Shown piece by piece: positions 42,097 to 52,137 of a DNA stretch of 64,000 nucleotides (the first letter of the stretch is position 1; each line of letters opens with the position of its first letter). The stretch is from NCBI GenBank assembly GCA_951406725.2, contig OX597816.1, positions 99,572,001-99,636,000 on the forward strand, written 5' to 3'. Source of the stretch: Octopus vulgaris. Its lineage: Eukaryota. Both the position numbers and the translations under genes were made by a program. The notes under the pieces are model-generated. The model made no database searches. It saw only the letters and a program-made list of their open reading frames with translations, and had not been told where the DNA came from.

Positions 42097-42185
42097 ACCG
42101 ACACATGTTTCGATTGCACTAGTTGCATATTGTTGTATATTTATATGCAACAATTTATGCATCGTTAGTATGATCTCTTCAGAGT
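42097..42185 (-). ncRNA. Type-I hammerhead ribozyme-like motif with extended stem II
   Basis: ACT-CTGAAGA-GATCATACTA..(tgcat/attgttg..caacaat/atgca hairpin)..TAGTGCAATC-GAA-ACAtgTGT-C-GGT: intact core, G10.1-C11.1 pair, GUC cleavage triplet. Confidence 0.7.
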
Positions 42186-43949: not shown

Positions 43950-44625
43950 CAGATACAACACCTGAAATATTTTTTGCAAGCTGAATAGTTAACCTTAACA
44001 GAGTTCTTATTCAATAGTTTTCTATACATATGTCCTGGCAGAAAATGTTGATTTCTTGAATTAACAAACTCTTCAGTTATATTAGTTTTTACTGCTAGCT
44101 TAAATACTACGTTGTACCATAAAGTATCCCTTTTTCTATTCCTATTCTTATAGTGTGCATTCTTAGTGATTTTTGTGTATCTAATCTTATAACAGACCCC
44201 ACTATTTCTAAGCACCTCAATATAATACCCATGTACACACATAAAAACATCTTTATCAGAAGGTAAAAAGGGTGTCTGTTTTCTAATAATGTCAATCAAG
44301 TTCTTCAATATGCAAGGTGGATGATTCGATTATCTATGTATACATACCAACTTCTCATTTGGTTTGTGGCATGGTGCGAAACTATTATTGGCCAGTCTTA
44401 ATGTTGCATCTAGAAAATTCACAGCAATAAGGTTTGTATTTACTGAAATACTTTAATCAAATCTTTCCTAAATTTGTCTAACTCATGACCAATACAATTT
44501 CTCAATAGATTCAGACCATCGTTATGATATAAACCACAGTTTATATCAGGAAATTTTATTCTCAGTAAATTAAGAACATATAGCACTCCCTATAATTTCA
44601 CTCACCTGAGCAGCATGTTAGCATT
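43950..44625 (-). mobile_element. Penelope-like element, RT and thumb remnant
   Basis: AQVSEIIG, GLYHNDGL (LYRDDGL-like), VNFLDATL..KPNEKLVYVHR*SNHPPCILKNL, RKRDTLWYN..VKTNI..HF...KLLNKNSVKVNYS. Confidence 0.82.
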
Positions 44626-46020: not shown

Positions 46021-47149
46021 AGCATATACATACACACATGTATATGTACACTCATACGTATTTAATGCCTACATGTAAGCATAAATATGTTTACACATAG
46101 ATCATTTATATATAAAGAGAAGACAAGAAAGATCACTTCTTCATATGTTTTCACTCATGTAAACATCAAAGTTAATAGATGAAATTGATTGTAAAAACAA
46201 GGAAACTTTATCAGTTCATAACAAAAGTGAAAAGGTCAACAAATTTGGATGATACCCAATATTTTTAGTCCTTTCCTTTCTTCCAATTTCTCTTCAGAGA
46301 CCTCCGCTCTATACCATTCCCAGATACTTGAAGAAAATAATAATAAACATAAGAGTAAAAATAAAAATTAAACTCATTTCTCACACATGACAGACATTTC
46401 AACTATTCCAATTTTAGCAGATAAGGTAATAAATAATGGTCAGTGAAAAATAATTTCACAGATGTTCAATTTAGTGAAAAATTGACACTATTTAATGGAG
46501 CTTTTTATTTTTTTATCTTTGAGACAAATGAAAATATAATACTATAGAAATGTAACCGTGCAATAAAAGAATTTGAAGTAAATCAAAGCAAGCTATACTT
46601 CAGTATCCTCTTCAAAATCATCATCATTGTCGTCATTGTCATCATCATTATCATCATCATCATCATCACCATCATCATTATCATTTTCATGTCCACACTT
46701 CCATGTTAGCTTGGGTTACATGGGATTTTTGGGGTAGTATTTTAAGGCCAGCAGATACTCTTCTCTATGCTTATTCTTATAGTTGCCTTTTGCAGCATGC
46801 TGAGAAATGGGTGTACCTATTCTAAAAACAGGAGTACACAGAGGATATATGTACATATATGAGTGTGGAGTGTGGTGGTAGTGGTGGTGTGTGTGTGTGT
46901 GATGAATGAACAAAAAGAAGAAAAAACACGAGGGACAATTTTCACCAAGGTGTTAATAGGTTCACACTTCAAAAGAAAAAGGAAAAGGGTCTTTAACATT
47001 TCAGATATGGCATCCTTCATCAAAAGTAAGTAAGTTAAAGAGAAGGTTGTAGAAAGGAGACCCATCATTTTCTTTCCTCTTTTTCTTCTTGCATGAACCT
47101 ACTAACACCTTTGTGTAAACTTGTCTCTCCTGTTTTTTCTTGTTTTTCT

Positions 47150-47408
47150 TCATTCGTCACACACACAAACATTATTCTTCCACCTTTCTACTTCCGGTCT
47201 TTCAATATGTGACCTCGTGAGTACCACTGGCGATTTTTTCCTCTGTCTTCCCTTCTCAGGATCTTTCCTTCTCCTATGTTTCCGACGAAGAGCTCCGCTC
47301 GAAACGTTAAACCCTCCTTCTTCCCTTCTTTCCTGAGCGTCCAATAATACTTTATTTGTTCCACGTCCTCGCATTGTTGTGTTTTTTTTGTTTTCTTGTT
47401 TGGATATA

Positions 47409-47412
<4 letters not shown>
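47150..47412 (+). mobile_element. Penelope-type terminal repeat fragment with a minimal hammerhead-like motif, ending at (TA)n
   Basis: GTTT-CCGACGA-AGAGCtccGCTC-GAA-ACGT-T-AAAC at 47278-47312; homologous to 27232-27445. Confidence 0.68.
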
Positions 47413-47443
<31 letters not shown>

Positions 47444-47812
47444 GTGTGTGTTAATGGTTATTTTTATATTCACTTATAATAAAAAATTTTACATTAATCT
47501 GAGGGTTACTCTATACATTTGTAGAGTACCAATTTATTATTCTTAAACAAAAATATTATTGACACTGGCTTTACATTTTGAGCCAGTTGAACCCTTGTTG
47601 GGCTGCATGGTTTGATGATTGCTAAACTGGCTGAAAGAGCAAAGTTACTGTCAATGATATTCTTGTTTAAAAATTTTGTGTTGTGTTGTGTTGTGTGTGT
47701 GTTTTACTCAAAGAAATTCCAACTTTGTCTGATTTTCACATTTTATTTACAATCTTATAGTAATATAACATAATATAATAAAATGATAGAATGCTAAATG
47801 TCCATTCTGATT

Positions 47813-47855
47813 GAACTAGTACTTTCATGCATTAAACTATGCAATCTTCAGGTTC
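47813..47855 (-). ncRNA. Minimal type-I hammerhead ribozyme-like motif
   Basis: GAAC-CTGAAGA-tTGCATagtttaATGCAt-GAA-AGTACT-A-GTTC: stem I GAAC/GTTC, palindromic stem III. Confidence 0.7.
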
Positions 47856-47861
47856 ATGAAG

Positions 47862-47928
47862 TAGTGGTGACAGTTATATTTTACAATTTACAACAGTTGT
47901 AAATTGTAAAACATAACTGTCACCACTA
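47862..47928. repeat. Near-perfect palindrome: 33-bp arms, 1-nt spacer, one mismatch
   Basis: tagtggtgacagttatattttacaatttacaac-a-gttgtaaattgtaaaacataactgtcaccacta. Confidence 0.95.
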
Positions 47929-48720
47929 TCTGTTATTTTAGTTAAAATACATATTTCTGTTCAGATCCTCTGTAGTAATAATTTACATAATATCTCTAAT
48001 TAACAGAATTTTTTTGCAACGCTAAATGTTAGTTTAACGGTTAACACTTCGATTTTCAATGTTATAATACATATTTCTACTTATCAGTCCTAAAATTATT
48101 ATTTACGTATTGATTTAAAGCTACAGAATTCTTGTAACGATAAATTTGTAGTTAATTTTTAACATGGTTTTAGTATAATTTTAGTCTAGTATAATTTTAA
48201 TCCCAAATTTGTAAATTCTAAATTCTAAATTATAACTTTAATTTTTAGTCTAACGTCTAAAATTCCAGTTAACTGACAAAAATAAGATAAATAATGTTTT
48301 TACTTTTCATAAAAACCAGTAAATTCTATCTGATTACTTATTTATCTGAATAAATTAACCACGGAAACTAATTTTTTTTCCTTCATATATATATATATAT
48401 TTTCTATTTTTTCTTATTTTTAATATTTGAAATGTTTTTATAATTATCTCCCCTACACCGGGAATCTTAAATAGAGGATAGTATTTTCTTTAGAAATGGT
48501 ATTCAATAATTACGAATTATCTCTCCTACATTGTAAATCATATAAATAGAGGACAACTTCAGTAGCCATCTTTAATTTGTGGAGTTAACTGGTGCTCATC
48601 AATAAGATAAGTCATGCTCCTACTTTTCTTTAAGACTGTTAAATCTTATCAATTATTTATAAATGTATGGTGTAAGAATAACATCTTCGTTTATGTTGTG
48701 AATTTATTTAATGTTATTGA

Positions 48721-48827
48721 GACCTGAAGAGTGGTTATGTATCGTTGGACTGAAGAAATATTAATTTTTGAGATTATTGATTTTGATATCGTAGATTTGT
48801 ATACATAGTCACGAAATGTGCATTGTC
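48721..48827 (+). ncRNA. Type-I hammerhead ribozyme-like motif with long stem II
   Basis: GAC-CTGAAGA-GTGGTTATGTAT...ATACATAGTCAC-GAA-ATGtgCAT-T-GTC; 12-bp stem II including two G-U pairs. Confidence 0.7.
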
Positions 48828-49140
48828 GTTTTAATGTGCATTTTTTAATGTGTATTATTTAGTATAGAAATTTTTAGTACAATATTAATAATAATGTAGT
48901 TTTAATGTTTATTTCTTTAATGTGTATTAATCAGAATAGAAATTTTTAGTAGAATGTTAATAATAATACATTTAAATTTACATTTTATTATAGATAATAT
49001 CTTTCATTATTAATTGAATTTCTTAATGGAGGTTCTGTCTCTTAATTCTATATATATTTAATATATTGTGAAATTTGATTTAATATTATTAAATTGAGTT
49101 TGTTTTCCCCTGTTGCCTTGGAATTTTATATACCCTACTA

Positions 49141-49182
<42 letters not shown>

Positions 49183-49854: not shown

Positions 49855-50320
49855 ATCTCAAATCTCAAGAATCTTCCTTAGTACTCTTGCAGAATATATG
49901 ATGTTACTTTCCTGCAGATCGACAATGTGTGATTCAATTCCAATCTCTTTCAGTCTTTTAGGTGGTATTTTAGGTGTTGTACCAAGTTCACCAATTATAG
50001 GAATAATTGTTGTCTTGGTCTTCCACAGTCTCTTCAGCTCTCTGGCTAGATCCTGATATTTCTCTGTTTTTTCAATCTTTTTAGTATATACATTCTTTTC
50101 TGGTATCTATTTTGATAAACTCACTTCTGTAATAGCATAACAGTTCTATTGTCATTTTGAGTCCATTTCATCCTAACTTTTGTAGCAATACTTGGATAAT
50201 GATCAGGTCCTCCCTACTGTGCAACAGAGCATCTGTCATGTGAAAGACCTTCACTTGTTGCACTTATAAAGAGGGCTGTGTTGGTGACATGTCACAACCA
50301 GCAGTGTTTTTATCAAGACA
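49855..50320 (-). mobile_element. Dong/R4-like C-terminal remnant
   Basis: EKYQDLARELKRLWKTKTTIIPIIGELGTTPK..LKEIGIESHIVDLQ....SARVLRKILEI on the minus strand. Confidence 0.8.
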
Positions 50321-51360: not shown

Positions 51361-51792
51361 GTTTTTTCCTTCTTTCTTCAAATTTTCTTCTGTTTCTCGC
51401 CGAGTGTTTTCCATACACCTAGGGCAGAGAAGGGCATTGTATGCATTCCCAGATTACACGTGCAAATTCACAGATAAAATATGTATTTAAAAATGAATAA
51501 ATAAATAAATTCATGGATGGATGTTATTTTCACAGCGATAGTGCTCTTCTCAGTACATGAGCCGTTCCAGTTAATACGATTTTTTGCACTTCCTGTAGGG
51601 ATGGTAAGCCTGGAATCATTTTCAAATAGGTTTCAGTACCTTTTTTTATCATTCCTAGAGATCCTACAATCACTGGTACTGTAGTCGCCTTGAAATGCCA
51701 CATTTTTTCAATTTCTATTGGCAGGTCTTTATATTTACTAATCTTGTCAAATTCTTTCGCCACTATATTGTGATCACAGGGTATTGTGATCA

Positions 51793-51793
<1 letters not shown>
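51360..51793 (-). mobile_element. 5'-truncated, well-preserved Dong/R4-like LINE inserted in (TAA)n
   Basis: Open ORF IPCDHNIVAKEFDKISKYKDL.IEIEKMWH.KATTVPVIVGSLGMIKKG..IPGLPSLQEVQKIVLTGTAHVLRRALSL*, 3' UTR of about 170 bp, (TTA)n on both sides. Confidence 0.9.
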
Positions 51794-51855
<62 letters not shown>

Positions 51856-51920
51856 CATTATTATTATTATCATTATTATTATTATTATTATTATCATTAT
51901 TATTATTATCATTATTATTA

Positions 51921-52137
51921 AGTCAGCAAGCTGACAGAATTGTTAGTACAGCACCTTTTTTTCTGATTTTATGATCTGAGTTCAAATTCCACCAAGGTCG
52001 AGTTTGTCATTTTTCCTTTCCCAGTCAATAAAGTACCTATCAAGTACTGGGATTAATGTTAAAAGTTACTCATCCCACTCATAATTACTGGCCTAATACC
52101 TAAATAAGAAACCATTTATTATTATTATTATTATTAT
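51921..52137 (+). mobile_element. SINE family B, diverged
   Basis: gcaagctgacagaattgttag..ctgagttcaaattccaccaaggtcgagtttg..aaagtacc..(ATT)n. Confidence 0.75.

Follow-up and report, generated by a model that had tools for sequence, protein, structure and literature searches.

An AT-rich octopus locus with two opposite-strand hammerhead motifs splits into three dispersed repeat families, two of them assigned to Penelope-like elements

Features of the locus

The window analysed here, a 64-kb stretch of Octopus vulgaris DNA from a 2.8-Gb animal genome rich in microsatellites, contains an AT-rich block (47400..49145) that an earlier note, made from the sequence alone, had interpreted as a candidate retrozyme or Penelope-dependent element. 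Every feature listed in that note is present in the sequence. The block has a GC content of 24% and its longest stop-free stretch is 65 aa, in keeping with its description as AT-rich and free of reading frames. The near-perfect palindrome consists of two 33-nt arms (47862-47894 and 47896-47928) that match at 97%, and the duplications described as about 120, 74 and 72 bp long measure 120 nt (82/126 columns identical), 73 nt (46/76 columns identical) and 72 nt (63/73 columns identical; 87% by TRF). The (TA)n runs proposed as the bounds of the unit are also there (47412-47440 and 49144-49178), but the window holds 15 TA runs of at least 10 units, so flanking (TA)n does not define a unit.

Two hammerhead-like motifs on opposite strands were reported, and a type-I descriptor applied to 47441-49143 recovers both, compared with none in 1000 dinucleotide shuffles of the same stretch, which answers the concern that shuffled sequence might yield such motifs as often. 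The minus-strand motif (47812..47856) has core position C3 at 47851 and H17 at 47817, with a predicted cut after 47817; its stem I is 5 bp long (47812-47856), its 5-bp stem II follows a U.U at positions 10.1/11.1 and its stem III is palindromic. The plus-strand motif (48721..48827) has C3 at 48724 and H17 at 48824, with a predicted cut after 48824, a stem I of 3 bp, a stem II of 12 bp around a 58-nt loop and again a palindromic stem III. The same descriptor finds a third motif on the plus strand directly left of the block (47282-47308), which is absent from the earlier note. An Rfam scan of the block gave 25 hits up to E 10, none of them to a hammerhead family and all of them low-complexity or hairpin matches. 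The predicted lowest-energy folds of both window motifs differ from the hammerhead fold, and single-strand folding gave no significant z-scores.

Further traces of a similar kind occur in the window. A weak hammerhead-like match with 3-bp stems at 42100-42182 on the minus strand could be due to chance or could mark another old end of a Penelope-like element (PLE). The segment 46888-47171 has inverted arms (46888-46985 and 47073-47171), a decayed minus-strand hammerhead can be made out by eye near 46990-47030, and the segment is probably another old PLE end.

The block splits into three repeat families

Genome searches split the block into three dispersed repeat families with sharp borders, referred to here as E, A and B. 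Each DNA search scored its best 40 candidates, so diverged copies spanning a junction could be missed, and the following statements apply to the candidates scored. When 47440-49143 served as the query, 61 matches were listed, and the non-self ones all start at or beyond 47920 (query position 481). With 47445-47935, matches run from 47704 to 47933 at most, and most of them start at query position 260, equivalent to 47704. The query 47448-47680 retrieved a third, separate set of 64 matches. The 19-nt sequence across the A-B junction (47917-47935) has a single exact match in the genome, the window itself, and the window is also the only one to span the junction among 47 matches to 47880-47990. 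The earlier note had suggested looking for multiple copies of the block as a whole; it occurs once in these searches, again among the best 40 candidates of each. Direct joints between different families are found elsewhere, with A joined into C, a fourth family outside the block, at locus L036 and B into C at L004.

Other searches concerned the block as a unit. TRF found no tandem unit holding a hammerhead in the block, the flanking microsatellites contain no readable target-site duplication, and the sequencing-run search listed no RNA run as holding the block. From part to part, summed contig depth in three runs varies by two to four orders of magnitude, although it is not a measure of copy number. 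Pieces corresponding to 48307-48622 and 48639-48999 occur with 0-1 differences in runs X1, X2 and X3, which carry three organism labels and come from two studies; these near-identical pieces suggest that the window's B copy is shared and old. Among the pieces listed for these three runs, none crosses the A-B joint.

Family A and its Neptune-type parent

Family A is represented in the window by a left arm on the minus strand (47704..47894), whose 3' end at 47704 lies against (TG)n, and by a right arm on the plus strand (47896..47928) that stops after 33 bp, before its hammerhead. Longer A copies elsewhere extend upstream into broken coding sequence for a reverse transcriptase (RT) and a GIY-YIG endonuclease, and a search with this coding body led to younger relatives, including locus L169. 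Here two direct repeats of 871 bp, 100% identical and each with the hammerhead, enclose an open frame of 1199 codons, with A ends directly 5' and 3' of the frame. The window's A sequence matches both of these pseudo-LTRs (pLTRs) at 77.7% over 211 columns, and its hammerhead matches the L169 motif at 91% over the surrounding 58 nt. Pfam detects RVT_1 (E 3e-6, just below the cut-off) and GIY-YIG (E 1e-4, at the curated cut-off) in the L169 frame. The first methionine of the A-parent frame is at 25, and the frame carries DKG at 582, YLDD, a C-x4-C-x2-C linker at 1074 and CxxC within the GIY-YIG core at 1114, with histidines downstream of the GIY-YIG cysteines as read from the frame.

A single frame with an RT plus a GIY-YIG domain at the C-terminal end, between direct pLTRs, is the arrangement of EN+ PLEs and is what L169 contains; the RT, linker and GIY-YIG motifs of the A-parent frame are those of the Neptune type, and family A has the hammerhead in the pLTR, the optional tail and the inverted 5' copy that go with it. 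On these features we identify family A as the end of the pLTR of a Neptune-type EN+ PLE, and the window's left arm as the last ~190 nt of it. Relative to the Neptune PLEs described in PMC8557442, the A parent shares DKG, the C-x4-C-x2-C linker and, at the C terminus, a GIY-YIG domain with two core cysteines, and family A shares the pLTRs, the inverted 5' copy, the ~30-nt tail and the microsatellite targets; the parent differs by a long N-terminal extension, its frame having 1199 codons in all. In the same account this motif set marks both Neptune and Nematis, and our Neptune label derives from motifs and not from a tree.

The optional tail of ~30 nt is present in 18/30 A copies and absent from the window's left arm. 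Its sequence is that of the stretch after the 5' repeat of L169, leading into the frame, and such a continuation is what the two RT start sites described in PMC11167929 would give.

The earlier note had made conservation of core and stems in homologs a test of the motifs, and in family A both are retained: the core CUGAAGA is found in 24/33 rows and GAAA in 30/33, and 94.6% of the stem cells are paired. The U.U at 10.1/11.1 recurs in 31/33 rows and A17 in 29/33. The covariation in stems that had also been proposed as a check did not emerge, in that one pair has a two-sided change, a level reached in 132/500 shuffles, in rows that were chosen by likeness. With their conserved core and three stems, the motifs of families A and B conform to the hammerhead and are candidate ribozymes. 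In the intact Neptune-type element itself (L169:682-5824), core position 4 of the hammerhead is C, and U.U is again found at 10.1/11.1.

Family B and its Hydra-type relatives

Family B occupies 47927..49049 on the plus strand, followed by an optional tail of about 95 nt (49050..49143) and then by the (TA)n target. B copies have two 3' end points, one at about 49050 and the other about 95 nt further on, and mostly stop in (TA)n. B-like copies at L003, L021 and L064 extend upstream of 47920 into GIY-YIG coding sequence and match aa 638-838 of an intact 841-aa frame at L137 at 63-65% for the main stretch; in these longer copies the coding match ends about 250-280 nt before the window's B start. 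A sister subfamily of B has the same sequence linked to RT remains. The L137 frame contains DKT, KWK at 44, YRDD and a C-x-C-x5-C linker, lacks CCHH and has CxxC and CxH near its end, and Pfam returns no match to it.

These motifs, on the intact sister frame, and the canonical hammerhead and (TA)n insertion of family B itself are those of Hydra-type PLEs, and we identify the window's B sequence as the 5'-truncated 3' end of such an element with its tail, comprising 3' non-coding region and pLTR. The assignment follows the motifs DKT, C-x-C-x5-C, absence of CCHH, and CxxC with CxH that L137 shares with the Hydra PLEs of Craig et al. 2021 (PMC8557442, section 11), and not a tree. The canonical hammerhead and (TA)n targets are likewise common to family B and the Hydra PLEs of that paper, in contrast to KWK in L137 versus RWK there, a tail of about 95 nt in B versus 30-40 nt, and a unit of about 6.3 kb at L172 versus a reported length of <3 kb. 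The latter is a tendency rather than a strict mark of the group, and it is exceeded by a ~2.5-kb frame together with the 1-1.5 kb of 3' sequence in B.

The intact Hydra-type elements form a sister family whose hammerhead is a different one, located about 270 nt upstream of the frame (4/5 fetched), and none of the loci examined contained an intact frame from B's own subfamily. A counterpart of the B 3' end in the upstream region of intact Hydra-type elements was sought and rejected, the alignment scoring 154 against a shuffle maximum of 156. Hydra-type frames that are intact or nearly so are numerous at L172-L176 (e.g. L137:970-3492); they are 820-860 aa long, contain an asparagine-rich insert and belong to a unit of about 6.3 kb. 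Further families at about 50% identity occur as well, and Pfam recognises none of these frames. Within the window, 44165-44583 on the minus strand is a decayed Hydra-like RT thumb fragment, 30-36% to L137 (E 1e-11).

In nearly all parsed rows the B hammerhead has the core CUGAAGA, and its stem II loop is 50-65 nt long across copies. Among 32 rows, of which 21 are window-like and 9 belong to the sister group, position 9 of stem II is G-C or G-U in 20/21 window-like rows and A-U in 9/9 sister rows, a pattern that reads as one compensatory change between the subfamilies. In the window's own B hammerhead, stem III is affected by CpG-type decay and position 17 is U. B carries its duplications in the 3' non-coding region, and the 72-nt one varies between presence and absence among copies. 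In the inverted pairs of B (L024, L064, L076, L083, L095 and L096) the extension is found at one end only.

Families C and E

Family E (47448..47674) is a separate, unclassified dispersed repeat with internal inverted arms. It has 64 matches at 68-91% among the best 40 candidates scored, its copies end at microsatellites and not in A, and in 10 loci it has neither a hammerhead nor a linked reading frame. Ahead of the E hairpin stands a partial hammerhead-like 5' core, whose remainder is missing in 10/10 loci.

Family C (47200..47411, plus strand) lies outside the block and is a short, high-copy repeat that carries the third hammerhead (C3 47282, H17 47308) and ends in the (TA)n at 47412. It has 39 non-self matches at 94-98%, and its copies run into (TA)n at their 3' ends; the left (TA)n of the block is therefore the 3' flank of C. 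In the sequence listed for 30 loci, no coding body was found upstream of C, and C may be a non-autonomous PLE derivative. This family is young, and its minimal hammerhead has C at core position 4. To the right of the block, frames of non-LTR retrotransposons have their 3' ends at 49858-50106 and 51530-51922 on the minus strand, with (ATT)n arrays after them.

The 5' ends of family A

The palindrome is the point at which two A ends meet head to head, through a 5-nt quasi-palindrome (47893..47897) located at the preferred 5' end of the family. We mapped 5' ends in 30 A loci (30/42 matches) that were found with the last 109 nt of A only, that is, with sequence downstream of the cut site. In 11 of the 30, including the window and one local duplicate pair, the 5' end falls within -3..+5 of the point equivalent to 47893. 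Of the rest, four lie between +20 and +22, another four between +14 and +68, and eleven further upstream, one of these being poorly anchored. The predicted cut (+81) is the 5' end of none of the 30 copies. The preferred 5' end is likely the start of the RNA. Head-to-head pairs meet at the same preferred point via the 5-nt quasi-palindrome, and in other palindromic copies (e.g. L034, L037, L038, L039, L049 and L053) the whole second arm is present with its hammerhead.

Inverted 5' copies are an established part of PLE architecture (PMC8557442, PMC3846280). The account in PMC11167929 includes cleavage and extension on two strands and two RT start sites, and PMC3846280 proposes self-priming on an antisense template for the inverted ends. 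What family A provides is a countable genomic read-out, namely a preferred 5' end that lies 80 nt upstream of the predicted cut site, the absence of ends at that site and joints of varied form, which bears on the open question of the role of PLE hammerheads and of how inverted ends are formed.

Origin of the composite

We consider it very probable that the block consists of family E, two head-to-head Neptune-type A ends and a truncated Hydra-type B 3' end, likely brought together by successive target-primed insertions in one microsatellite patch. As reconstructed from sequence comparison, the local (TA)n/(TG)n patch would most likely have received E, C and A as separate insertions. The A enzyme would have used both strands of the target for priming and made two copies of the first ~195 nt of its RNA, and the 3' ends of the two cDNAs may have annealed via the 5-nt quasi-palindrome at the RNA start, giving a fold-back of ~390 bp. 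Priming of B would have followed later, in the (TA)n on the right-hand side, and the 5' end of B would have been joined inside the right arm of A by microhomology (47920..47928, where the B copies align; 2 nt exact, 7/9 nt imperfect). This joining would have removed about 160 bp of the right arm, and a later deletion would look alike. Both the order of events and the annealing step are to be read as a model of this kind.

The idea of two elements joined at the palindrome, put forward as a variant in the earlier note, is borne out insofar as more than one element is joined, but the palindrome links two copies of family A and not two hammerhead-bearing elements. The attribution of the motifs to PLE-type type-I hammerheads also holds, and A and B both trace to PLE families with coding copies. 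The hammerheads would be passengers of their parent pLTRs and would act as homodimers in tandem precursor RNA; such motifs have been suggested to cut weakly, as dimers or with the help of protein (PMC4209133, PMC11167929). Lying on opposite strands and having different stem III palindromes, the two cannot serve one transcript and would have no joint role here.

A first alternative, which we regard as quite improbable, is that a single event integrated both A and B, through the joining of a Hydra-type cDNA to a twin-primed Neptune-type intermediate, which gave a cross-clade inverted insertion. If true, it would show that cDNA ends from different PLE clades can be joined by microhomology. The divergent orientation with both 3' ends outward agrees with such an event, as do the tail at the B end only, the lack of a microsatellite between A and B, the 7/9-nt microhomology and the broadly similar divergence of A and B from their relatives. 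However, the A-A centre is complete and 33 bp of the second A arm precede B, so the A fold-back formed first; moreover, truncated right arms and direct joints between families occur elsewhere (L033, L036, L004), and this particular joint occurs once in the searches made. Taken jointly with such single-event Neptune-Hydra stitching, a reading of the fixed A start and its 5-nt quasi-palindrome as the genomic record of cDNA-end annealing from uncleaved RNA seems improbable to us.

The palindromes of family A could in principle form a MITE-like unit, copied whole from a palindromic master, of which the window holds a broken copy. Many copies share their centre and their outer ends, as this would predict, but the centres vary, with 51, 57 or 63 nt between the same fixed anchors, and the central base, judged against the tailed arm, can be the variant of one strand or of the other. 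The older and the younger subfamily each form palindromes of their own version (L053), and single arms start at the same point with no partner. On the grounds of these variable centres, the central base found either way round and the lone arms with the same start, we reject copying from a master as very unlikely. Instead, we infer that every A palindrome arose anew: both strands of the target were primed, and the two cDNAs annealed by their ends where the RNA starts.

That the whole 1.7-kb block is a non-autonomous, ribozyme-processed, retrozyme-like element moving as a unit is extremely unlikely and is rejected: the two real hammerhead motifs, the lack of a reading frame and (TA)n on both sides fit it, but the motifs are on opposite strands with no hammerhead-bearing tandem unit (TRF), the left (TA)n belongs to family C, and neither the block nor the A-B joint has a second copy among the best 40 candidates scored.

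Comparison with known systems

The non-autonomous unit or retrozyme of the earlier note gives way to a composite of likely successive insertions: no other copy among the candidates scored spans the block, A and B are fragments assigned to protein-coding PLE families, and E is a separate repeat. The non-LTR retrozymes described in bioRxiv 10.64898/2026.07.22.740005 are likewise non-coding, related to PLEs and equipped with type-I hammerheads. They consist of at least two consecutive tandem units, each with a type-I hammerhead, and are multi-copy as whole units, whereas the block has two unrelated motifs outside any tandem hammerhead unit, is found once among the best 40 candidates scored and has parts that come from coding elements.

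For PLEs, opposite-strand hammerheads 100-700 bp apart, an inverted 5' copy, a tail and (TA)n targeting have been described (PMC8557442, PMC3846280, PMC4209133). The motifs here resemble the published PLE type-I motifs in their short stem I and palindromic stem III, the published ones being mostly solitary in truncated copies. They depart from these descriptions in that family A has U.U and A17 in place of the usual G10.1-C11.1, in family B stem II is 12 bp long and its loop 50-65 nt, and the window's opposite-strand pair comes from two different clades. A repeat annotation of one octopus reports 31 recently active Penelope-like families, with ribozymes unmentioned in its main text (PMC13282606). 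A literature search found no description of these particular families or their hammerheads, which the supplements of PMC13282606 or Repbase may hold.

The features noted at the locus are real, and they belong to a system of known kind and constitute no new element. The locus itself carries little weight: PLE ends are nested in microsatellites at many places, and this is one of them. The intact Neptune-type element and several intact Hydra-type frames are candidates for in vitro work. Contigs near-identical to L169 occur in four runs guessed to be RNA. In one contig (depth 3.8; run X13, guessed RNA), more than 20 A-to-G changes are clustered across the pLTR end at L169:1465-1559, a pattern that would be expected if inverted ends gave double-stranded RNA and this underwent A-to-I hyper-editing, this being a single contig with no DNA control.
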